The notes under the pieces: generated by a model
Told to the model about the DNA's origin: nothing
What the model saw: only the letters and a program-made list of their open reading frames with translations
Database searches by the model: none
Program-made: the position numbers and the translations under genes
Shown: positions 3,467-61,636 of the stretch, one piece after another
How the letters are laid out: the number at the start of each line of letters is the position of its first letter
Position numbering within the stretch: the first letter of the stretch is position 1
Assembly: GCA_036169735.1 (NCBI GenBank)
Contig: JAVHNX010000036.1
Coordinates: 13,681 to 77,680 of the forward strand
Source of the DNA: Minisyncoccota bacterium
GTDB taxonomy: Bacteria > Patescibacteriota > Minisyncoccia > Phycocordibacterales > UBA9973
DNA: 64,000 bases
Reading direction: 5' to 3'

Positions 3467-4213
3467 TTAAGCGTGTTTTAAAGGAGTATGTTTTTTGTCT
3501 TCTTTAACAAAAGCTTTTCTGGCAAATATTACTATCAGTAGAACTAAGGTTAAAAGTAGAAGCCATCCGATTAAACTTGAAGGCATTAAACCGTTTGTTC
3601 CAAACAGTGCGTTGGCCATAAGACTACTACTAGAATCTGTTGATTTGGTTGTACTTTTAGCAACAGTTGTTTTCTTTACCACCTTTGCTGTTGTTACAGT
3701 CGTTGCAGTTGTTGTAGTTGTCGATTTTGCGACAGAAGCTTTGTTTAGTTGGAATATGGCGGAATTTGACATTCCACCTCCTGGTAGAGGATTAAAGACT
3801 GTTATTGTGTAAGCACCTAATCCAGACATATCTGATGGGGTAAGGGTTGTTGTAATTTTATTTGAGTTTACAAAAGTTGTTGCTCTTTCTTCACCGTTCC
3901 ATTTAGCAACTGATCCAAATGAAAAGTTGGTTCCTATGATTGTTACAACAGTAGCAGCTTTACTTGAAACTGCAGAATCAGGGCTGATTGAATTTATGGT
4001 TGGAACTAAATTGACTGTTGGCGTGGGTGTTGCTGTTGTGGGTGTATTAATATCACCTACATAGGAATATCCATTGTAGTAACTACCAGCTCCGCCGTCA
4101 TAAGAAAAGCCACCATAAGCATTAGCTTTTAAGGGTAAAACTAGGATACTGAAAACAAATATACCTAATACCCCTAAAGTCTTTATTATTAAGTTGTTAG
4201 TTGTTTTATTCAT
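3467..4213 (-). CDS. Cell-surface protein with IPT/TIG domain, Thr-rich linker and C-terminal TM anchor
   Basis: Signal peptide ...VLPLKANA. Segment PTINSISPDSAVSSKAATVVTIIGTNFSFGSVAKWNGEERATTFVNSNKITTTLTPS...YTITVFNPLPGGGMSNSAIFQ matches the IPT/TIG fold pattern. Poly-Thr stretch, then hydrophobic helix GWLLLLTLVLLIVIF and basic tail. Start trimmed to MNKTTNN. Confidence 0.5.
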   Translation of the reverse strand: MNKTTNNLIIKTLGVLGIFVFSILVLPLKANAYGGFSYDGGAGSYYNGYSYVGDINTPTTATPTPTVNLVPTINSISPDSAVSSKAATVVTIIGTNFSFGSVAKWNGEERATTFVNSNKITTTLTPSDMSGLGAYTITVFNPLPGGGMSNSAIFQLNKASVAKSTTTTTATTVTTAKVVKKTTVAKSTTKSTDSSSSLMANALFGTNGLMPSSLIGWLLLLTLVLLIVIFARKAFVKEDKKHTPLKHA

Positions 4214-4263
4214 ATAAGTCAAGTATACCATATATAAATCTAAAAGTCAAGCTTATTAAAGCT

Positions 4264-4345
4264 TATAAACATTGTGCCGGGAGGGAGACTCGAACTCCCA
4301 AGGGTTGCCCCACTAGTTCCTAAGACTAGCGCGTATACCAATTCC
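4264..4345 (-). tRNA. tRNA-Leu (anticodon TAG)
   Basis: Cloverleaf in reverse complement: acceptor GCCGGGA/TCCCGGC, anticodon stem-loop CTAGT-CTTAGGA-ACTAG, long variable arm, T-arm GGGAGTTCGAGTCTCCC. No encoded CCA. Confidence 0.85.
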
Positions 4346-4434
4346 GCCATCCCGGCATTTTTTCGATTACTATATAGAATAGCTTTCTTTTGATAATAAA
4401 TCAAACACGAGAGTAAGAAAAAATTTTTTAAATG

Positions 4435-4488
4435 CACACATAAAATTCTGCTGAATTTTTGCTCTGCTCGGCTCGTCAGCCTGCGCAA
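4435..4488 (-). repeat. Conserved ~55-nt element (copy 1) in tRNA-Lys/tRNA-Leu spacer, homologous to mnmA leader element
   Basis: Minus-strand TTGCGCAGGCTGACGAGCCGAGCAGAGCAAAAATTCAGCAGAATTTTATGTGTG is about 85 percent identical to 28823-28877. Small hairpin ggct-gacg-agcc versus ggcc-gaccg-ggcc shows a compensatory change. The spacer is bracketed by cacacgagag...ctctcgtgt. Confidence 0.5.
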
Positions 4489-4521
4489 GGCATTTTAAAA
4501 ACATTTTCTTTCTCTCGTGTG

Positions 4522-4595
4522 TGCACCCAGGAGGGATCGAACCTCCGACATTCTCCTTAAGAGGGAGCTACTCTACCAGCTGAGTTATGGGTGCA
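4522..4595 (-). tRNA. tRNA-Lys (anticodon CTT)
   Basis: Reverse complement GCACCCATAACTCAGCTGGTAGAGTAGCTCCCTCTTAAGGAGAATGTCGGAGGTTCGATCCCTCCTGGGTGCA; anticodon loop CTCTTAA. Confidence 0.8.
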
Positions 4596-4659
4596 TAAAA
4601 ACAAATATAAAAACTTACTTTCTACTTTAACATATTTATTTTATTTTCAATATGTCTTG

Positions 4660-4741
4660 TGCCCGGAGTGGGGGTCGAACCCACATCCCTTGCGAGACAC
4701 GATTTTAAGTCGTGCGCGTATACCAATTCCGCCATCCGGGC
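4660..4741 (-). tRNA. tRNA-Leu (anticodon TAA)
   Basis: Reverse complement has acceptor GCCCGGA/TCCGGGC, anticodon stem-loop CACGA-CTTAAAA-TCGTG, long variable arm, T-arm GGGTTCGACCCCC. Confidence 0.85.
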
Positions 4742-4782
4742 AAATTATAATTTAATATGATTCTTTTTTCAAATTACACTTG

Positions 4783-4855
4783 AGGCCTGGGGCGGAATCG
4801 AACCGCCGTATATTCCTTTTGCAGAGGAATGCCTTACCACTTGGCTACCAGGCCG
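4783..4855 (-). tRNA. tRNA-Cys (anticodon GCA)
   Basis: Reverse complement GGCCTGGTAGCCAAGTGGTAAGGCATTCCTCTGCAAAAGGAATATACGGCGGTTCGATTCCGCCCCAGGCCT; anticodon loop CTGCAAA; discriminator U. Confidence 0.85.
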
Positions 4856-5207: not shown

Positions 5208-6704
5208 TTATTTTTGTGTTATTGAAAACGACTCAAGAATGTCTCCTGCTACTATCTCAATCTTTGATTCGATCATAGTACCAAATTCTGAACCTTCTTC
5301 TACTTTGTTTGTTTTTGATTTGAATTTCTCTAGGTTTACGATTCTACCTTTACCTATTTCAAACTCACGACGAATTATTTTAACTGTTTCACCAAGAGAG
5401 ATATTTCCTTCAGTAACTTTTCCTCCGACAACTTGGCGTTCCTTGGTACGGCTGAAAGCTTTGATTATCTTAGCTCGTCCGGTAACTTCGATTGTTTCTA
5501 CTCTAGGGCGTCTCTTTTCCATTTCTTCTGTCAACCATTCTGTCATTTTGTAAATGATATCGAAAAATAGAATTGGAATGTTTTGCTTTATAGCTAAGTC
5601 ATTGGCACCTCTGTCTGCTTTTACATTAAACCCGATTACAATGATTTCTGAACCCTGGGATGATTTAATATCGGACTCAGTAATAGGTCCGACACCTTTC
5701 TGGATTATTTTGAATTCTGCACCTTCACTTTGTATTTTTTTTATTTCTTTTTCGATTGCTTCAATAGATCCCATGACATCTGCACGCAAAACTATTGGAA
5801 TCATTTTTTTATCACTTATTTCTCTCTTTTCATTTTTGGTTATTTTTTTATTTAATATTTCTTTTGCGTATTCTTCAGCATCACCTTTCTTTTCGAAAGC
5901 TTTAAACATTGCTCCAACTTTTGGAACTTTACTAAAGCCAACTAGTCGAACAGGGGATGAAAATGTGGCATCTTTAACCATTTTGCCTAAAAAGTTTTCC
6001 ATGATGCGAGTAGAACATAAAGCATCTTCCACTGCTACAGTCATACCATTTTTAAGTTTTCCATTTTTAATAATTAAAGTAGCTTGGATTCCTCTTTTTG
6101 GATCTAAGTTTGCTTCGATAACATATCCCGTTGCTCCTTCCTCCGTATTTGCTGTAAATTCTTCCATCTCAGCTATAAGAAGAATTAGAGTTAAAAGATT
6201 ATCTACGCCAGTACCAACTTTTGCAGAAATCTCAGCGACAGGTGTCTTGCCTCCGTATCCTTCAACATATATTTCATTTTCAGCAAGTTCCATTTTTGTC
6301 TTTTCGATATTAGCAGCTGGTCTATCTATTTTGTTGATAGCAACAATAAATGGAATCTTACTTTCAAGAATTGTTTTGTAAGCTTCTATTGTTTGTGGTT
6401 TTACTCCATCTTCGGCTGAAACAACTAAGATAGCAATATCTGCTGCTTCCGCTCCACGTTCACGCATTTTTGAGAAAGCTTCGTGTCCTGGAGTATCTAA
6501 GAAAGTAATTTTTTTATCTTTACCATGTTCGTCTTTATGAACAACTTCATACGCAGAAATATGCTGAGTAATTCCTCCAGCTTCACGGTCAACAATATTT
6601 GTCTTTCTGATATAGTCCAGCAACGTAGATTTACCATGGTCGATATGACCCATGACTACTACTATCGGTGGACGATCTATTATGTTTTTTATTTTGTTTT
6701 TCAT
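5208..6704 (-). CDS. infB: Translation initiation factor IF-2 (short form lacking N-terminal extension)
   Basis: G-domain motifs [22 protein letters not shown]-terminal beta-barrel domains. Followed by rbfA. Confidence 0.9.
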
Positions 6705-7189: not shown

Positions 7190-8530
7190 ATGGTTAAATC
7201 AATCAAAAAATCAAAGAATATATATATGGATTATGCCAGCGGTGCTTCAGCTAATCCTGCCAATCCTGGAGCAATTCACGATTTTGGTGTGAAAGCGAAA
7301 AAACAACTGAATGAAGCAAGGGAAGAAATTGCCAAGATTTTAGGTGCACACTCAAATGAAGTGGTTTTTACCTCAGGGGCAACAGAGAGTAATAATTTGG
7401 CAATTTTGGGAATACTAAGAAAATATTTTGAAACTTTTAGCCCCTATGTCAGACATAGGGGAGTTTCCCCTATGTCTGACATAGGGGCTGTTCCACATAT
7501 TGTTACCACAAACATAGAACATGCATCTGTGCTGGAGGTGTGTAAATATTTAGAAAAAACAAAACAAATAGAAGTGACTTATGTTCCAGTAGAAGAAAAT
7601 GGAATAGTAGATCCGGAGAAAATAAAAAAATCACTTAGACCAAATACGATTTTTGTTTCTGTTATGTATGCGAATAATGAGATTGGAAGTATCCAGCCAA
7701 TAAGAGAAATTGCAAAAGAAATTAGACATTATCGAAAACAAGAAGCGGAAAGAATAAATGAAAAAAGGTCGGACATTAAGAATTTAGAAAGGTCCGACCT
7801 TGGTATTTTTCCAGTTTTTCATACCGATGCGACTCAAGCAATAAATTATTTACCGATCAATGTTGAAAAACTTGGCATTGATTTGTTATCTTTTAATGGA
7901 TCAAAAATTTATGGGCCGAGTGGTGTTGGAGCTTTGTATGTAAAAAGACAGACACCTATCACTAGTATTATATTTGGCGGTGATCAAGAATTTGGATTAA
8001 GACCAGGGACAGAAAATATTGTCGGTATTGTTGGATTAGCAAAAGCTTTAAAAGTTGTAGAACAAATAAAAGATAAAGAAACAAAACGTTTAATTAAACT
8101 AAGAGATTATTTTATTAAAAAAATGTCAAGGTTAAGCCTTGACACTACACATTCCCCGAAACCAGGTTTAGGGGAACTTCCCCTAAACCTGGTTTCGGGG
8201 AAAGTTATACTAAATGGTGACCTAGAAAATAGACTACCAAACAATATAAATATCACTATTCCAAAAATTCCAAGTGATCTTTTGGTAATAGAACTTTCTG
8301 CTCATGGAATTATGGCTTCTGTCAAAAGTGCTTGTAAATCTGGTGACGAAAAGGCATCCCATGTAATACAAGCTATTCGAGAAGCACAACTAGGGGAGTT
8401 ATTGGTTAATAAAGAAATTGACGGATCAATCAGATTTTCTCTTGGTAGACAAACAACCAAAGATGATATTGACTACACACTAAAGGCTTTGTCTCAAATT
8501 TTGACCAAACTAAAAAGGTGGTATAATTAG
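7190..8530 (+). CDS. Cysteine desulfurase, NifS/IscS family (class V aminotransferase), carrying four in-frame palindromic insertions
   Basis: N-terminus IYMDYASGASANP...FTSGATESNNLAILG matches the IscS start, and ...SFNGSKIYGPSGVGALYV matches the PLP-lysine region. At 446 aa it is longer than typical because of the inserted peptides SPYVRHRGVSPMSDIGA, RSDIKNLERSDLG, MSRLSLD and HSPKPGLGELPLNLVSG. Confidence 0.8.
   Translation: MVKSIKKSKNIYMDYASGASANPANPGAIHDFGVKAKKQLNEAREEIAKILGAHSNEVVFTSGATESNNLAILGILRKYFETFSPYVRHRGVSPMSDIGAVPHIVTTNIEHASVLEVCKYLEKTKQIEVTYVPVEENGIVDPEKIKKSLRPNTIFVSVMYANNEIGSIQPIREIAKEIRHYRKQEAERINEKRSDIKNLERSDLGIFPVFHTDATQAINYLPINVEKLGIDLLSFNGSKIYGPSGVGALYVKRQTPITSIIFGGDQEFGLRPGTENIVGIVGLAKALKVVEQIKDKETKRLIKLRDYFIKKMSRLSLDTTHSPKPGLGELPLNLVSGKVILNGDLENRLPNNINITIPKIPSDLLVIELSAHGIMASVKSACKSGDEKASHVIQAIREAQLGELLVNKEIDGSIRFSLGRQTTKDDIDYTLKALSQILTKLKRWYN
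7439..7490. repeat. GC-rich composite palindrome inserted in-frame in nifS
   Basis: agcccctatgtcagacatagggg-ag-ttt-cccctatgtctgacataggggct: a 52-nt palindrome made of two CCCC...GGGG half-palindromes; encodes SPYVRHRGVSPMSDIGA. Confidence 0.7.
7765..7801. repeat. Hairpin element aaggtcggac...gtccgacctt inserted in-frame in nifS
   Basis: 10-bp arms aaggtcggac/gtccgacctt with a 17-nt loop. The same arms form the stem of the rsmI terminator at 58619-58672. Confidence 0.6.
8123..8145. repeat. ATG..CAT hairpin element (family 1) inserted in-frame in nifS
   Basis: atgtcaagg-ttaag-ccttgaca. Near-identical copies at 40142-40164, 57884-57906 and the variant at 49828-49850. Encodes MSRLSLD. Confidence 0.7.
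8154..8200. repeat. GC-rich composite palindrome inserted in-frame in nifS
   Basis: ccccgaaaccaggtttagggg-aactt-cccctaaacctggtttcgggg: a perfect 47-nt palindrome; encodes PKPGLGELPLNLVSG. Confidence 0.7.
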
Positions 8531-12273: not shown

Positions 12274-12356
12274 TGCGTCGGGAAGGATTCGAACCTTCGA
12301 AGCCCGGAGGCGACAGATTTACAGTCTGTTGTGATAGACCACTCCACCACCGACGC
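12274..12356 (-). tRNA. tRNA-Tyr (anticodon GTA)
   Basis: Reverse complement has acceptor GCGTCGG/CCGACGC, anticodon stem-loop ACAGA-CTGTAAA-TCTGT, long variable arm (class II), T-arm GAAGGTTCGAATCCTTC. Confidence 0.85.
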
Positions 12357-28822: not shown

Positions 28823-28877
28823 TTGCGCAGGCCGACCGGGCCGAGCATAGCAAATTTTCAGTAGAAAATTATGTGTG
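28823..28877 (+). repeat. Conserved ~55-nt element (copy 2) in mnmA 5' leader
   Basis: TTGCGCAGGCCGACCGGGCCGAGCATAGCAAATTTTCAGTAGAAAATTATGTGTG is about 85 percent identical to the minus-strand sequence at 4435-4488. Confidence 0.5.
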
Positions 28878-28901
28878 TTTTTTAGAAGGTATTTTGATTT
28901 T

Positions 28902-30023
28902 ATGCCACTAAAAAATAAAACTATATTTGTGGGAATGTCAGGCGGGGTGGATTCCTCTGTTTCCGCTGCTATTTTAAAAGACCAGGGGCATAATGTTGTT
29001 GGGGTTTTTATTCGTACCTGGCACCCTGATTTTTTGGTTTGTAATGAAGAAGATGAGCGCCGCGACGCTATGCGCGTCGCGGCGCATTTGGATATTCCAT
29101 TTTTAACTTTTGACCTTTCAGATGTTTACAAAAAAGAAGTCGCAGACTATATGATTGCTGAGTATAAAATGGGCCGTACTCCAAACCCAGATGTGATGTG
29201 CAACAAAGAAGTGAAGTTTGGTGCTTTCTTGAAAAAGGCTCTTGAAATGGGTGCAGATTATGTTGCGACAGGGCATTATGCGCAAGTTTTAGAAAAAAAA
29301 TTAGTTAAAGGTGTTGATTCTTCAAAAGATCAATGTTATTTCTTGTGGACTTTAAAACAAGAACAACTAAAACATATTTTATTTCCCGTAGGGCATTTAA
29401 ATAAAACAGCGGTAAGAAAATTGGCAAAGAAATATAAATTGCCTGTCGCAGAAAAGAAAGACAGTCAAGGGATTTGTTTCCTAGGTGATATTGATTTGAA
29501 AGATTTTTTGAAACATTATATTAAAGAAAAAAAGGGAAAAGTAATAAATGAAAAAGGAGAAGAAATCGGATATCACGATGGTGCTGTTTTTTTGACTCTG
29601 GGAGAACGTCACGGTTTTACTATTACGAAAAAAGGCCCAAATGATGGGGCTTATTATGTTGTTAGTAAAGATGTAAAGAAAAATATCATAATTGTGTCAC
29701 AGATTTCCCCCCTCCTTAATAAGGAGGGGGTTGGGGGTGGTAATTCAAAGAATCACCACCCCGCTCTAAAGAGCACCCTTCCTCAAAAAGGAGGGGAAAA
29801 AATTAGAATTAGTGACATTAATTGGATCTCAAGTACTCCAGATGAAAATAAAGAATACACAGCTCAAGTACGTTATCATGGAGAATTTTTACCTTGCCAA
29901 GTAATTTGTGGAAGTCCGACTTCCGCAAAAGTAATTTTTGAAAAACCTGTACTCGTTGCTCCTGGACAATCAATTGTTTTCTATGATAAAGATATTTGCT
30001 TTGGTGGTGGGGTAGTAGCCTAA
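28902..30023 (+). CDS. mnmA: tRNA-specific 2-thiouridylase MnmA, with an in-frame GC-rich palindromic insertion
   Basis: Start trimmed to MPLKNKTIFVGMSGGVDSSV (PP-loop SGGVDSS). Catalytic Cys region present. Insertion peptide LLNKEGVGGGNSKNHHPALKSTLPQKGGEK comes from palindromes at 29707-29796. Confidence 0.8.
   Translation: MPLKNKTIFVGMSGGVDSSVSAAILKDQGHNVVGVFIRTWHPDFLVCNEEDERRDAMRVAAHLDIPFLTFDLSDVYKKEVADYMIAEYKMGRTPNPDVMCNKEVKFGAFLKKALEMGADYVATGHYAQVLEKKLVKGVDSSKDQCYFLWTLKQEQLKHILFPVGHLNKTAVRKLAKKYKLPVAEKKDSQGICFLGDIDLKDFLKHYIKEKKGKVINEKGEEIGYHDGAVFLTLGERHGFTITKKGPNDGAYYVVSKDVKKNIIIVSQISPLLNKEGVGGGNSKNHHPALKSTLPQKGGEKIRISDINWISSTPDENKEYTAQVRYHGEFLPCQVICGSPTSAKVIFEKPVLVAPGQSIVFYDKDICFGGGVVA
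29707..29796. repeat. Cluster of GC-rich palindromes inserted in-frame in mnmA
   Basis: cccccctccttaat-aaggaggggg, then gggggtggtaattc-aaa-gaatcaccacccc, then cccttcctc-aaaaa-ggagggg. The first resembles the priA insert ccctccccttggcaaggggaggg. Confidence 0.65.
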
Positions 30024-39652: not shown

Positions 39653-39686
39653 TAAAAAATCTCACATAACTGTGAGATTTTTTATT
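39653..39686. terminator. Bidirectional terminator between grpE (+) and the PaaX-like gene (-)
   Basis: aaaaatctcaca-taac-tgtgagatttttt: hairpin flanked by an A-run and a T-run. Confidence 0.6.
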
Positions 39687-40257
39687 TCTTGAAAGTATCA
39701 AATAAAAACTTTTTAGTTTCTTCGTCGATGAATTGAGTTTTGATTATCATCATCTCAGTAGTGAGCTCTAAATCTTTTTTAATATTTTCAAAAAGATGTT
39801 CATAAGGATAAGGGGAGATCCAAGCAGAATTTTTTAGACATACGAACCCAGCTTTTTTTAATAAATAGCGGAGAGACCCGCGTTCACTTTTTCGGGTCTC
39901 TGGTAAATCTAATAAAATAATTCTCCAATATCCATCCCAGGAAGTATCGACGAGAGTAGTATCACTATCGAGCTTTAAGCTATTTATTTTCTTTTTTCCT
40001 TCTTTTGTTAATCGAGCGTAATCATTCTGACCAGAGGAAATATTCTCTATTAGACCAGCTTCACGAAGGCCTTTTAAAGAGCGTGTGATGGCGTAGGACA
40101 CTTTTAAATCTGCTTTACTTATATTGTTATATAAAGGCTCCATGTCAAGGTTAAGCCTTGACATTTGTTGGCTTAATTCAGGTAGGGAAATAGCTGTTTT
40201 TTCACCTAAAATTTTGAGTATTTTCTTGGAATAGTCGGGTTTAGTTGACATATTCAT
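39682..40257 (-). CDS. PaaX-like transcriptional regulator (N-terminal wHTH, C-terminal PaaX_C-like domain)
   Basis: C-terminal WDGYWRIILLDLPETRKSERGSLRYLLKKAGFVCLKNSAWISPYP fits the PaaX C-terminal pattern (W.G.W.......PE..R..R..LR..L...GF..L..S.W..P). Contains the family-1 hairpin insert encoding MSRLNLDM. Confidence 0.4.
   Translation of the reverse strand: MNMSTKPDYSKKILKILGEKTAISLPELSQQMSRLNLDMEPLYNNISKADLKVSYAITRSLKGLREAGLIENISSGQNDYARLTKEGKKKINSLKLDSDTTLVDTSWDGYWRIILLDLPETRKSERGSLRYLLKKAGFVCLKNSAWISPYPYEHLFENIKKDLELTTEMMIIKTQFIDEETKKFLFDTFKK
40142..40164. repeat. ATG..CAT hairpin element (family 1) inside the PaaX-like CDS
   Basis: atgtcaagg-ttaag-ccttgacat; same element as 8123-8145 and 57884-57906. 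Confidence 0.7.
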
Positions 40258-51122: not shown

Positions 51123-51194
51123 GAGTGTGTAGTTCAGTGGTAGAACGCTGTCCTGATAAGACAGAGGTCGATGGTCCGATTCCATCCACACTCA
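51123..51194 (+). tRNA. tRNA-Ile (anticodon GAT)
   Basis: GAGTGTGTAGTTCAGTGGTAGAACGCTGTCCTGATAAGACAGAGGTCGATGGTCCGATTCCATCCACACTCA; anticodon loop CTGATAA. Confidence 0.85.
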
Positions 51195-53211: not shown

Positions 53212-53628
53212 ATGATTAAATCAAAACAACTGGCTCAGGCTTTATTTGAACTCTCAGAAGAGGAGAACTTGGTAGCAGGACTACCAAGTTCACTTGGTAG
53301 TCCTGCTACCAAGTCATTGGATGAGAAGTTTTTTAGTTTTATTGAAAAAAGAAATTTGAAAGGACAGATGAACTCAGTCCTTTATCACTTGGAAAGAATC
53401 ACTGAACAAGAAAAAGAAAAGAAGGGTATACAGATAGAAACAGCTCATGAGATAAAAGCTGAGACTGCCAAACAAATAAAGACTTTCCTAAAAGCTGATC
53501 ACCTGACTGAATCATTAAAAATCAAAAAAGAATTAGTCGCAGGATTTCGAGCGAAGTTCGGAGGAAAGATTTATGATTCGAGTATTATGACTGGTTTGAA
53601 GAAATTAGAAAGAGAGATTGCCAAATAA
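53212..53628 (+). CDS. atpH: F0F1 ATP synthase subunit delta (short, 138 aa)
   Basis: Operon position. C-terminal IKKELVAGFRAKFGGKIYDSSIMTGLKKL resembles the OSCP/delta C-terminus. Confidence 0.65.
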   Translation: MIKSKQLAQALFELSEEENLVAGLPSSLGSPATKSLDEKFFSFIEKRNLKGQMNSVLYHLERITEQEKEKKGIQIETAHEIKAETAKQIKTFLKADHLTESLKIKKELVAGFRAKFGGKIYDSSIMTGLKKLEREIAK

Positions 53629-57883: not shown

Positions 57884-57906
57884 ATGGCAAGGTTAAGCCT
57901 TGCCAT
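57884..57906. repeat. ATG..CAT hairpin element (family 1), intergenic copy after atpC
   Basis: atggcaagg-ttaag-ccttgccat. Confidence 0.65.
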
Positions 57907-57931: not shown

Positions 57932-58609
57932 ATGTCTAAATTTTACGTAGTTGCTACACCGATAGGAAATATGGGAGACATTACCTTCCGAGCTATTGAA
58001 ACACTTAAAGAAGTGGATTTGATACTGTGCGAAGATACCCGTGATACAAAAAGGATTCTTGATAGGTACAATATCAGTAAACCGATGATGAGTTATCATG
58101 CCCAGAGTAAACTCGCAAAGGTGGATAAGATTTTTGAATTATTGGAAGAAGGTAAGAATCTTGCTTTAGTTTCAGATGCTGGCACACCAGGTATTTCTGA
58201 TCCCGGTGCTATGCTAGTTTTTAAAATAAAAGAAAGATTTACAACTGAAGAAGTCCAAGTTATTCCGATACCGGGAGCAACTGCTCTTGTAGCTGCTCTT
58301 TGTGCTTCTGGGCTGCCTACTCATGAATTTACATTTATCGGTTTTATGCCCCACAAGAAAGGCAGAGAAACATTGTTTAAAGAAATAGCAGAAGCAAAAC
58401 GTACAATGGTTTTTTACGAGTCCCCACACAGAATTTTAAAAACTTTAGAATCATTGATAAAATTCTGTCCAGACAAAAAAGTTTGCATTGCTCGTGAAAT
58501 AACAAAAATCTACGAAGAATTTAAAACCGGTTCAGCCGCAGAGCTTCTAGAATATCTGACAGTTAATCCCGTAAAACAAAAAGGGGAGTTTGTTGTGCTT
58601 GTAGCGTAA
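57932..58609 (+). CDS. rsmI: 16S rRNA (cytidine1402-2'-O)-methyltransferase RsmI
   Basis: Tetrapyrrole-methylase-fold start FYVVATPIGNMGDITFRAIETLKEVDLILCEDTR...; 225 aa. Confidence 0.7.
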   Translation: MSKFYVVATPIGNMGDITFRAIETLKEVDLILCEDTRDTKRILDRYNISKPMMSYHAQSKLAKVDKIFELLEEGKNLALVSDAGTPGISDPGAMLVFKIKERFTTEEVQVIPIPGATALVAALCASGLPTHEFTFIGFMPHKKGRETLFKEIAEAKRTMVFYESPHRILKTLESLIKFCPDKKVCIAREITKIYEEFKTGSAAELLEYLTVNPVKQKGEFVVLVA

Positions 58610-58618
58610 TTAAAGGTT

Positions 58619-58676
58619 AAACGAAGGTCGGACCTTAGACATATTTGTCTAAGGTCCGACCTTCGTTTTTTTTGTT
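58619..58676 (+). terminator. Strong rho-independent terminator after rsmI, built from the aaggtcggac repeat family
   Basis: 23-bp stem aaacgaaggtcggaccttagaca / tgtctaaggtccgaccttcgttt, 4-nt loop, then T-run. Confidence 0.7.
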
Positions 58677-59692: not shown

Positions 59693-61636
59693 CTATAAGA
59701 TATTTTCTGGATCGATATTTACTGAAAATTCACGAGGAAGTAACAAAAGTTTTTCAAGAAGTTTTTCATCAATTTTAGAATTTGTAGATAGTTCAGGTAA
59801 GGACCATTTTTTAGTATCTATTTTTATTAACATATTTGTGACATATTTATCTTTTATTTTACTCACGAAACCACTAAAAATCTCAGGGTCATAATCTTTG
59901 AATACTTCTTCAAGGGCTTTTTTTGTATGAATTGAATCTTCTTTATTTCCCATGTGCGTGATTTTAATAAAACGTTTAAATGGAGGATATCCAAGATTTT
60001 TTCTATCTTCTAATTCTTCACGCACAAAAGACAATATGTTTTCTGTCTCAACTGCATGGATAGCTGGGTCTTGCTTATTTTTGGTTTGGATAATAAGTTT
60101 GTCTTTTGTTTTGGAAATTATCGAAAAAATAAGTTGGATAATTTTCTCATTCATTTTGAAACTAGGCACACTCCAAAGTGAATCAAAAGAAGCGATGACT
60201 GAGAGGGTAACAGGTTCTTTTATATATAGTAGTGCCATCTCAGTACCGACGAGTATTGATCCAGGATTCTCTTCAAATTCCTTTATTATTTTTATTGCAC
60301 CTTTGGTTGTCTTGGCTGATTCTTTGTCGAGTTTAAAAATTTTTGTTTCAGGGAAAAGTTTTTGAGCTTCTTCAAATACAGTATCAGTACCAATACCGAG
60401 CGGCATAAGATTCCAACTATTACAATTTAAACATCTGGTCTCAGGATCTTTTTCTGTATTACATCGGTTACAAGCAAACATTCTTTTTTTACCATCTCTA
60501 GATAAATAAAGGACGACAGGTACGGAACATTTTGTGCACATGACTGGTTCATTACAATCTCGGCAAAGTGTCTCTGTTGCCAGGCCTTTTCGTAGTGAAA
60601 ATATAAAAATGCTTTCTTTTTTTGTAATCACTTCTTGTATTTCTTGGGCAGTATCGTCAGTTAATACTTTAAATTTCTCTTCCTTTTTTTCTGGTATTTT
60701 TATTTCTCCTTCAAAATTTAACCTGAAAGATAATGGGTGTACTTCAGAAAAATTATCCATTTCTTTTCGAGCTATTGTTTCAAAATGAAGTAGGGAATCA
60801 CCGAGTATAAGTTTGGCACTTATCTTTGAAGCATAAAGTTCCACAAATGAACGCAGGTCGAAATAAGGCCTATTCATCATTTTGTAAGCATTGGAACTCT
60901 CATGTTCCAGGATAATAGTCCCAAAATCACGACGTGGTATAGATAAAAATGGTGCAGTACCAAATACGAGGACTGGGTGTGAGGAAGTTACAATCTCATC
61001 AAATTTTTTTAAAATCTTTTTTGGTCCCAATCCTGCATACATTGAGAAGCTGAAGTTCTCGATTCCTTTCGATAATGTTTTTGAAAATATCTCAATATCT
61101 ATCTCAGTAGGTAAAACTATAAAAACTGATTTTTTTTCTGCGAATGATCCACGGATCAGAGTCTTGTAAAAAGAAATACGATCTTCAAGTGGATATTGAA
61201 AAAGTAATTTTTCTTTTTTTATATTCACCCCTCCCAACCCTCCCCTTGGCAAGGGGAGGGCAATGGTGTAATCTTCATTTTTTATTTTAGATATCTTGTC
61301 GTACTCTTCTCGAAAGATTGATGGGATCAAAGTCACAATTGCATCATTTTTTCTTGTTGCAAAATATTTACTGATGTCGAGAGTGGACTCGATATATTCT
61401 TTTAAGAAAATTGAGTTCTCTTTTACTTCAGTTATTTTTTTTAGATTGAATGCCAGGTTTTTTATATCAGATTTTGTGTCAGTTGCTTTCTCTGAAGAGA
61501 CCGCTAGACCAAGTATTTGTTTATTTCGAATTGGCACAGTCACAATACTCCCATCAGGTATATTTTTTGAGCTAAAATAGGTCAGATTTTCCCTGAAAGC
61601 TCCTTTTTCCAACGGGATTACTGTCACGATTTTCAT
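59693..61636 (-). CDS. priA: Primosomal protein N' (PriA) homolog; helicase motifs degenerate
   Basis: N-terminal 3'-DNA-binding domain (MKIVTVIPLEKGAFRENL...GSIVTVPIRNKQILGLAV). Cys-rich zinc-binding region CRDCNEPVMCTKCSVP...CNRCNTEK...CLNCNS. No recognizable GxGKT Walker A; DExH reads ILEHESS. Contains GC-rich palindromic insert encoding LPLPRGGLGG. Confidence 0.65.
   Translation of the reverse strand: MKIVTVIPLEKGAFRENLTYFSSKNIPDGSIVTVPIRNKQILGLAVSSEKATDTKSDIKNLAFNLKKITEVKENSIFLKEYIESTLDISKYFATRKNDAIVTLIPSIFREEYDKISKIKNEDYTIALPLPRGGLGGVNIKKEKLLFQYPLEDRISFYKTLIRGSFAEKKSVFIVLPTEIDIEIFSKTLSKGIENFSFSMYAGLGPKKILKKFDEIVTSSHPVLVFGTAPFLSIPRRDFGTIILEHESSNAYKMMNRPYFDLRSFVELYASKISAKLILGDSLLHFETIARKEMDNFSEVHPLSFRLNFEGEIKIPEKKEEKFKVLTDDTAQEIQEVITKKESIFIFSLRKGLATETLCRDCNEPVMCTKCSVPVVLYLSRDGKKRMFACNRCNTEKDPETRCLNCNSWNLMPLGIGTDTVFEEAQKLFPETKIFKLDKESAKTTKGAIKIIKEFEENPGSILVGTEMALLYIKEPVTLSVIASFDSLWSVPSFKMNEKIIQLIFSIISKTKDKLIIQTKNKQDPAIHAVETENILSFVREELEDRKNLGYPPFKRFIKITHMGNKEDSIHTKKALEEVFKDYDPEIFSGFVSKIKDKYVTNMLIKIDTKKWSLPELSTNSKIDEKLLEKLLLLPREFSVNIDPENIL
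61226..61268. repeat. GC-rich palindrome inserted in-frame in priA
   Basis: cacccctcccaa-ccctccccttggcaaggggaggg-caatggtg. Confidence 0.65.

Follow-up and report, generated by a model that had tools for sequence, protein, structure and literature searches.

A known case of short palindromic DNA that settles inside protein-coding genes is that of the Rickettsia palindromic elements (RPEs; Ogata et al. 2000 Science; Ogata et al. 2002 Genome Res). As summarized in a review of 2024 (PMC10969869), these palindromes lie in frame in unrelated and often essential genes as well as in noncoding DNA, each family contributes a recurring peptide to host proteins whose fold is compatible with it, and several families coexist in small AT-rich genomes with no known transposase. 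The same review presents RPE insertion as an unusually frequent case of a process that is elsewhere only speculated. Here, we describe a comparable situation in the Patescibacteria (Candidate Phyla Radiation, CPR), centered on the gene for a type-I cysteine desulfurase (IscS/NifS-like) in a 64,000-nucleotide (nt) stretch of a Minisyncoccota genome (contig JAVHNX010000036.1), referred to below as the window. The gene carries several short in-frame inserts, most of them palindromic, and it is likely that these are copies of small, repeated hairpin DNA elements, mobile or selfish in nature, that are kept only in frame and only in tolerant loops.

Other systems offer partial parallels. REPINs are inverted doublets of a short repetitive extragenic palindrome (REP) and are mobilized by a REP-associated tyrosine transposase (RAYT; Bertels and Rainey 2011, PMC3116915; PMC3337134). 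GC-rich hairpins have been outlined for mitochondrial genomes, including the double-hairpin elements of Allomyces (Paquin et al. 2000) and the repetitive hairpins of sponges and placozoans (PMC7813641). Among bacterial MITEs (miniature transposable elements with inverted repeats), intragenic in-frame copies are known for ERIC/RU (PMC2759123) and for Correia, BOX, and QMITE1 (reviewed in PMC10969869).

The product of the desulfurase gene is assigned to the class-V aminotransferases (Pfam PF00266, 1.2e-54), and its best solved relatives in a HMMER search of the PDB are IscS, NifS, and NFS1 (E values down to 4e-66). It has the class-V fold, the lysine that binds pyridoxal phosphate (PLP), the His, Asp, and Gln ligands of PLP, and the catalytic cysteine in a flexible loop that together characterize cysteine desulfurases; K239, C382, H103, D213, and Q216 show no variation in 120 orthologs. 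The 120 top database homologs, 370–484 amino acids (aa) long, all belong to the Patescibacteria (Minisyncoccia, Candidatus Nomurabacteria, Paceibacterota). The genomes nearest to the window are metagenome-assembled genomes (MAGs) of Minisyncoccia/Candidatus Nomurabacteria, and the nearest species-representative genome entry is 85% identical at the protein level. For comparison, we used 80 loci from species-representative genomes of Nomurabacteria/Paceibacteria (1.2 Mb), which with the window make 81 aligned proteins of 363 to ∼484 aa, the few longer calls being start-codon over-extensions; comparison loci and metagenome stretches bear L-numbers (L002, L003, and so on). The subclade of the window has lost a stretch of 14 residues near the N terminus (ATPID..VL.VMQK.LKENF; alignment columns 239–253, window aa ∼19) that 26 orthologs and classical IscS possess, a deletion unrelated to the palindromes.

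Palindromes were located by an inverted-repeat scan and an exhaustive hairpin search, and the inserts in the gene fall at four sites numbered H1 to H4 (table 1). The sequence-only reading of the window had reported an intact desulfurase open reading frame (ORF) with four palindromic inserts, and it placed them correctly to within 1–3 nt. The family A insert at H1 is an inverted doublet of a 21-nt mini-palindrome, CCCCTATGTC-N-GACATAGGGG, whose two units (7441–7461 and 7467–7487) are spaced with a 26-nt period. The family B insert at H2 is a doublet of AAGGTCNGACCTT (13 + 11 + 13 nt), running AAGGTCGGAC(C>A)TT, an 11-nt spacer, and AAGGTCCGACCTT; its first mini-palindrome is broken by one substitution, making it a decayed doublet, and is intact in the closest relative (L002). 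Site H3 holds both the single hairpin of family C and an inverted doublet of family D, built from the 21-nt unit CCCCGAAACC-A-GGTTTAGGGG (8154–8174 and 8180–8200) with the same 26-nt period and the same architecture as family A. At H4 lies a fifth insert, absent from the earlier reading, whose peptide GELLVNK is common to the window, L002, L003, L029, L040, L042, and L055; other lineages have GC-rich hairpin inserts at this site (PARNAFSIADAGG and similar). Peptides that would span the inserts include VRHRGVSPMSDIGAVPH, HRGVSPMSDIGAVPHIVTTNIEHASVLEVCK, SDIKNLER, and tryptic peptides containing PGLGELPLNLVSGK.

Table 1. Positions in the window of the desulfurase gene, its inserts and catalytic residues, and further copies of the insert families
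Feature	Position (nt)	Strand	Structure	Translation or context
Type-I cysteine desulfurase (IscS/NifS-like)	7190..8530	+		Intact ORF, 446 aa
H1 insert, family A	7439..7489		24-bp perfect arms, 3-nt loop; 51 nt = 17 codons	SPYVRHRGVSPMSDIGA
H2 insert, family B	7765..7801		10-bp arms AAGGTCGGAC/GTCCGACCTT, 17-nt loop	KRSDIKNLERSDL
PLP-binding lysine K239	7904–7906			
H3 insert, family C	8124..8144		8-bp arms TGTCAAGG/CCTTGACA, 5-nt loop TTAAG; single hairpin	21 nt, 7 codons
H3 insert, family D	8152..8202		25-bp perfect arms, 1-nt loop; 51 nt; family sequence CCCCTAAACCTGGTTTCGGGG, also written CCCCGAAACC/CCCCTAAACC	Within HSPKPGLGELPLNLVSG
Catalytic cysteine C382	8333–8335			
H4 insert	8393..8413	+	Not clearly palindromic; 7 codons	GELLVNK, aa 402–408
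Family C copy	40143..40163	.		Inside PaaX-like coding sequence 39682..40257 (− strand)
Family C-like hairpin	57884..57906	−	ATGGCAAGG-TTAAG-CCTTGCCAT	Intergenic, terminator-like on − strand
Family B intergenic copy	58619..58668	+	AAGGTCGGACCTT + 14 nt + AAGGTCCGACCTT within 23-bp perfect arms	Intergenic

The perfect stems in the gene measure 25, 24, 10, 10, 10, and 8 bp. Five stems of at least 10 bp were observed against a mean of 0.06 in 300 dinucleotide shuffles, in which the longest stem was 11 bp, and the whole window has 13 stems of at least 14 bp against 0.1 expected. Taken alone, the 8-bp hairpin of family C is within chance (1.07 stems of at least 8 bp expected); it is counted as an element because its core recurs elsewhere.

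The extra peptides are insertions. In HMMER alignments, the solved IscS, NifS, and NFS1 structures are gapped at query aa ∼80–99, ∼180–208, and ∼312–337, which are the palindrome stretches, with a smaller gap at aa ∼398–405, and insert-free orthologs are gapped at the same stretches. Among the 120 database homologs, too, proteins differ in length mainly at these places. The peptides are missing from unrelated desulfurases (E. coli, A. fulgidus, M. tuberculosis, human NFS1, and others) and from many orthologs of the clade, some of them only 363–380 aa long, which identifies them as insertions and rules out ancestral loops. An AlphaFold2 model of the desulfurase based on 120 sequences (pLDDT 83.1, pTM 0.85), which replaced a model from 26 sequences that was too poor to use (pLDDT 62.9), has low confidence only at residues 81–100, 191–210, 311–340, and 401–410 and in the known flexible Cys loop (381–390); these stretches are loops between confident secondary-structure elements. 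Foldseek comparison of the model with NFS1, IscS, and NifS gives TMt values of 0.82–0.86 and TMq values of 0.72–0.75, a difference of the kind that ∼60 extra unaligned residues would give. The inserts were also recovered independently: a Logan contig encodes aa 95–446 at 100% identity, including the second to fourth inserts, and in L002, an independent MAG, inserts occupy the second and third loops at matching positions. Ancestral loops shared with unrelated lineages and assembly artifacts at the palindromes, the two explanations that the sequence-only reading had held against its own proposal, thus both fail, and the comparisons that it had called for, with IscS/NifS orthologs and with related genomes, place the inserts in structure gaps and low-confidence loops and reveal insert-free orthologs and different elements at the same sites. 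In the Logan assembly of the same strain (P0002, longest contig 1968 bp), the gene call begins at M95, inside palindrome A, so that such hairpins break short-read contigs.

Across the 81 orthologs, inserts of at least 6 aa are present at H1 (aa 82–99 in window numbering) in 22 proteins, at H2 (aa 189–205) in 28, at H3 (aa 316–335) in 18, and at H4 (aa 401–408) in 23. Internal inserts outside these sites are singletons only, and many orthologs are empty at a given site. Different lineages hold different hairpin inserts at the same four loops, many of them perfect palindromes with stems of up to 31 bp. When the 64 inserts of at least 8 aa were folded, 75% were more stable by minimum free energy than all 20 same-length controls taken from conserved parts of their own gene, and 42 lay within the lowest 1% of their own shuffles; the mean GC content of inserts is 41–58%, against 37% for genes. 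When perfect stems (10 bp or longer, with at least 5 G/C) were counted over all loci (1.24 Mb), there were 0.37 hairpins per kb in the desulfurase, 0.053 per kb in other coding sequences (CDS), and 1.09 per kb in intergenic DNA. The desulfurase accounts for 8.7% of the coding DNA but for 37 of the 92 intragenic hairpins, a density 7-fold that of other CDS (binomial p=3e-16). It is a hotspot throughout the clade, as the earlier reading had claimed for the window, and is one of several hotspot genes, IF-2 and Fmt being others.

The same cores are found at non-homologous sites in different genes and genomes, showing clearly that they form repeat families; copies of the hairpin families lie within at least 12 different CDS. 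The proposal that each family recurs elsewhere in the window proved correct for B and C and incorrect for A and D. Family B has one further copy there, located 10 nt past the stop of the ORF 57932..58609 and followed by the T-run TTTTTTTT, which looks like an intrinsic terminator; family C (TGTCAAGG/CAAGGTTAAGCCTTG) has the two listed in table 1. Families A and D (CCCCGAAACC/CCCCTAAACC) have no second copy within the window, A being a real family outside it and D being present only at the orthologous site of L002 and nowhere else in the 1.6 Mb compared. Family B occupies H2 in five genomes (the window, L002, L060, L018, and L016) and H1 in L077, and is found in addition in IF-2 (aa ∼285) of L016, L018, L075, and L076. 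Family C forms 48-nt doublets at one site of a ∼600-aa gene in L011, L027, L038, L051, and L081. Two further families, E (CCCTCTCCTT-N-AAGGAGAGGG) and F (CCTCCCCCTAC-N-GTAGGGGGAGG), were found at H1 and H2, the former also in IF-2.

Metagenomes were scanned for family A. The query CCCTATGTCNGACATAGGG recovered it from 44 metagenome stretches besides the window desulfurase, either as a singlet with the consensus (C)TTCCCCTATGTCNGACATAGGGGAA(G) or as an inverted doublet in which the center is always A in the first unit and T in the second. It lies in frame in at least eight other genes: Fmt, GatB, a MurD-like ligase, Tgt, a TrxB-like reductase, YchF, DUF4015 (Pfam), and an ORF that we ourselves, rather than Pfam, take to be MnmA. 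In Fmt, two contigs carry a doublet and a third a singlet at the same site; other family A copies are intergenic. Several of the contigs encode proteins 55–91% identical to those of the window or its clade and some are syntenic with the window at 46–64 kb, so that we assign them to the same clade.

How the elements are read shows that the conserved unit is DNA and not peptide, since families A and E are each read in more than one stop-free frame. One reading frame of the family A unit holds a TAG, and no copy uses that frame; every copy is read as PYVRHRG or (S)PMSDIG, and in doublets the 26-nt period switches between these frames. For family E, at least two frames are in use (PLLxKER and PPSQGGE). 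All inserts in the 81 orthologs are stop-free and a multiple of three in length, and all 81 ORFs remain open through them. This is the pattern expected from selection on translated inserts, and it argues against their removal or bypass.

Close relatives differ in their inserts. The locus L002 (JBAQFC010000008) is syntenic with the window, is 93% identical to it in desulfurase DNA, and shares the inserts at H2, H3, and H4. At H1, it has an unrelated 93-nt element (MHTYLPAGKLLCSARQPAQGISKNTR) of a family known at H1 of several other orthologs, and the coding DNA flanking H1 (window 7395–7500 vs. L002 10200–10330) is about one-third different, against 7% elsewhere in the gene, which suggests a recombined patch imported together with the different element. 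L003, with a protein identity of 71% in tblastn and 81% in core columns, lacks any insert at H1 and H3, carries another element at H2, and shares H4; the family A insert is missing from L002, L003, and most orthologs. From this pattern of sharing, H4 would be the oldest insert, followed by H2 and H3, with H1 the newest. Similarly, a 57-nt H3 insert of L029 is absent from L040 and L042 (92–93% core identity), and L013 differs from L005 (85%) at H1 and H3. In the elements that L002 and the window share, arm-breaking substitutions are uncompensated, and two of them break the left arm of family D in L002, suggesting that the hairpin structure is not upheld by selection. L041 (58% identity) has at H1 a family A palindrome that differs from that of the window and is also perfect; we read it as an independent insertion, with arm-to-arm correction as the alternative.

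The palindromes fall into two classes, “cassettes” that lie wholly in insert columns (A, B, E, and F) and others with an arm in columns that 80% or more of the orthologs fill. At H1 of L007 and L076, the native sequence ...CCGCAT, which encodes the near-invariant P102 and the invariant H103, serves as the right arm, and its reverse complement, ATGCGG..., as the left. The same pattern occurs in L043 (TCGCAT/ATGCGA), and the empty relatives L021 and L026 have the native copy only, without the inverted ATGCGG arm. Inverted duplication of the target flank thus seems to have enlarged some palindromes, which is what fold-back or template-switch synthesis would yield. Direct target-site duplications were not found at six pairs of filled and empty sites. 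A tblastn search of the same 1.6 Mb with an IS200-type TnpA sequence as query, a weak test, gave no match (E > 1), and the hairpins matched no Rfam family at gathering score, the only hits being sub-threshold ones that resemble miRNA precursors. Three other candidates were rejected: no T-run follows the intragenic hairpins, as would be the case for intragenic terminators; there is no regular repeat–spacer array of the CRISPR type; and the inserts are far too short to be inteins.

Set against the known systems, the inserts come closest to RPEs, as the sequence-only reading had recognized, although they are probably not RPE homologs. Like RPEs, they are hairpin palindromes (arms of 24, 25, 10, and 8 bp in the desulfurase) inserted in frame in intact genes, and their families recur in unrelated genes and noncoding DNA (A, B, C, E, and F; D only at its orthologous site). 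RPEs are ∼100–150 bp long, whereas the units here are 13–25 nt, the doublets 37–51 nt, and only a few inserts reach ∼100 nt, and the host is a patescibacterial lineage (Nomurabacteria) rather than Rickettsia; the comparison was made by description. Further differences from RPEs are the many perfect palindromes, the occupation of the same loops time and again by different families in a set of more than 80 genomes, and the occasional inverted copies of flanking sequence. With REPs and REPINs the elements share a short-palindrome unit, the inverted doublet with a short spacer, the coexistence of singlets and doublets, and terminator-like intergenic copies. However, REPs are extragenic by definition and many copies here lie in CDS, and the GTAG/CGTC tag found at the 5′ end of REP units (PMC3733652) is absent from the present ones, which start (C)TTCCCC, AAGGTC, TGTCAAGG, or CCCTCTCC. 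The units here are also shorter, and REPINs depend on RAYT, whereas the weak tblastn search of the 1.6 Mb found no Y1 transposase.

Mitochondrial hairpins are similar in being 10–100 bp long, GC-rich in an AT-rich genome, sometimes doubled, present in genes and between them, variable among relatives, and thought mobile without a known enzyme; they differ in belonging to eukaryotic organelles and in having unrelated sequences. To our knowledge, a systematic in-frame colonization of defined loops in housekeeping enzymes has not been described for them. MITEs are likewise small nonautonomous repeats that occasionally fuse in frame with host ORFs. They are, however, 100–400 bp long, with terminal inverted repeats, target-site duplications, and a parent insertion sequence; in our case neither a target-site duplication nor a parent insertion sequence was seen on comparing filled with empty sites, no genome-wide search for the latter being made, and in-frame intragenic copies are frequent rather than occasional. 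A search of the full-text literature found no prior description of such elements in CPR, Patescibacteria, or Parcubacteria, which is absence of evidence and no proof of novelty.

If the inserts are copies of repeated hairpin elements, as we think likely, these would spread within and between genomes of Nomurabacteria/Paceibacteria as a basic 13–23-nt mini-palindrome, often in the form of an inverted doublet able to fold up as a single long perfect hairpin, as in REPINs. Copies would land anywhere, and within genes the survivors would be those with a length that is a multiple of three, a stop-free frame, and a position in a tolerant surface loop. Sites H1–H4 would have been hit repeatedly and independently in different lineages, which would make the desulfurase look like a hotspot. 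Once in place, the inserts would be read as loop extensions of 7–20 residues and then decay neutrally, and intergenic copies would be terminator-like. Our best guess is that movement would involve either single-stranded hairpins acted upon by a trans-acting enzyme or template switching during replication, the inverted copies of native codons lending some support to the latter, and homologous recombination of flanks may exchange elements between genomes.

A number of points weigh against this interpretation. No donor element, transposase, or target-site duplication was identified, so that mobility rests on distribution, and family D is only a candidate repeat. The pattern of L007, L076, and L043 may represent a single ancestral event. 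Gene calls in the hairpin census are simple ORF calls, and the hotspot could partly reflect targeting of earlier hairpins instead of a pure selection filter, either being compatible with the data. That the inserts are translated is a prediction from their reading frames. They probably lie in surface loops, exposure being judged from alignment, model confidence, and secondary structure.

Several rival explanations were considered. A purely local origin would have template switching or fold-back synthesis copy neighboring sequence in inverted orientation, with length-variable loops gathering such events. The H1 palindromes of L007 and L076, and likewise L043, in which one arm is native conserved coding sequence and the other its inverted copy, are what this predicts, as are several other stems in which 80% or more of orthologs occupy the columns of one arm and the many perfect stems expected of templated synthesis. 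It does not account for identical 13–25-nt cores at non-homologous sites (family A in at least nine genes; B, C, E, and F likewise) or for cassette palindromes wholly within insert columns, and so we regard it as unlikely to be the sole origin, while local events probably contribute to growth and doublet formation. Somewhat less likely again is that the elements are selected functional modules, acting in RNA or DNA (mRNA stability, RNase or regulator sites, translational pausing at domain borders, uptake signals) or as functional peptide tags. The terminator-like look of intergenic copies, the recurrence of PYVRHRG/SPMSDIG in many proteins, and the different yet individually perfect family A versions at one site in the window and L041 would fit such a role. 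Presence and absence between close relatives, the many insert-free orthologs, the interchangeability of different families at one site, and the uncompensated substitutions between the window and L002 point the other way; moreover, the recurring peptides are explained by which frames of the DNA unit are free of stops, family E being used in two frames, and intragenic hairpins have neither a T-run nor a matching Rfam family.

The byp elements of Magnusiomyces mitochondria are bypassed by the ribosome, and GC-rich hairpins in an AT-rich genome resemble them. That the present inserts are similarly untranslated, being removed from the mRNA or bypassed, is nevertheless very improbable, because neither removal nor bypass would impose the filter seen in the inserts, all of which, in the 81 orthologs and in the other host genes alike, are stop-free and a multiple of three, with the TAG frame of unit A unused. 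Least credible of all is an origin in assembly or sequencing error or in ancestral, lineage-specific loops. The Logan contig that ends within palindrome A does show that assemblers struggle there, but the inserts are identical in that independent assembly and present in an independent MAG, their units occur in dozens of unrelated metagenome contigs, and unrelated desulfurases and many clade members lack them.

Considered as mobile hairpin elements, the inserts extend RPE-type insertion to a major uncultivated radiation and to elements tenfold smaller. Conserved CPR proteins vary in length and carry insertions, for which the elements offer a tangible origin, and the occupied sites chart naturally which loops tolerate inserts in proteins such as IscS/NifS, IF-2, Fmt, and GatB. 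In practical terms, the palindromes break short-read assemblies and inflate alignment gaps in marker genes, and they could serve as strain-level markers. Filled and empty sites, together with the inverted-flank palindromes, provide a testable handle on how small hairpins move or grow in genomes with minimal repair machinery. A bolder proposal, which we put forward tentatively and consider doubtful, is that Nomurabacteria/Paceibacteria host active, ultra-small REPIN-like replicators (13–25-nt units) that reside largely in CDS, lack a recognizable transposase, grow by inverted flank duplication, and perhaps explain a sizeable share of the lineage-specific loop insertions in conserved proteins of the CPR; if true, this would add a new mode to what is known of intragenic selfish DNA and protein-length evolution.

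The IF-2 gene beside the desulfurase is a second hotspot, at aa ∼282–294. Nine genomes (L012, L016, L018, L040, L045, L052, L071, L075, and L076; e.g., L018 2025–2061 and L071 8560–8604) have hairpins of different families (B, E, and TTGGGAGCT doublets) at aa ∼285–290, and there is additional variation at aa ∼8 and ∼62. The IF-2 gene of the window (5208..6704) is itself without an insert at the variable columns of aa ∼290. Six tRNA genes of the window (4275–4854 on the minus strand, 12274–12356, and 51123–51194), four of them clustered between the IF-2/RbfA operon and an upstream gene, carry no hairpin insert.

Changes within family A elements are seen in two of the metagenomic host genes. In L097, L101, and L123 (e.g., L097 4128–4171), the unit follows a tandem partial triplication of its left arm (CCCCTATGTCCCCTATGTCCCCTATGTCGGACATAGGG), and the stretch reads LPMSDIGDIGDIGE in the DUF4015 gene, indicating slippage within the element. 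In GatB, L110 has a singlet plus a partial unit (438–480) where L100 bears a doublet (4191–4232), and L110 is short by ∼32 codons; a deletion between element repeats or a mis-assembly is possible.

Other genes of the window contain similar structures. In the ORF 53212..53628 (ATP synthase delta/OSCP), a 48-nt perfect inverted doublet of another family but of the same architecture (53267–53314; ACTTGGTAG-CAGGA-CTACCAAGT TC ACTTGGTAG-TCCTG-CTACCAAGT) is read in frame as NLVAGLPSSLGSPATKS, N-terminal to the part of the protein that matches the OSCP profile. A family E-like hairpin, CCCTCCCCTTG-G-CAAGGGGAGGG, lies at 61238–61260 in the PriA-like ORF 59693..61636 on the minus strand. The ORF 28875..30023 encodes MnmA, the tRNA 2-thiouridylase, which acts downstream of cysteine desulfurase. 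It contains three adjacent GC-rich hairpins in frame between the PRC-barrel and C-terminal domains (29704–29801; CCCCCTCCTTA-A-TAAGGAGGGGG, GGGGTGGT...ACCACCCC, and CCCTTCCTC...GGAGGGG) and a second palindrome at aa ∼60 (29057–29085; GCGCCGCGACGC), and the metagenomic MnmA of L096 has a family A unit at another site. Families E and F (e.g., window 29708–29730 and L070 4600–4622) carry in one arm the motif AAGGAG(G), which is Shine–Dalgarno-like; intergenic hairpins with this motif could create or mask ribosome-binding sites.

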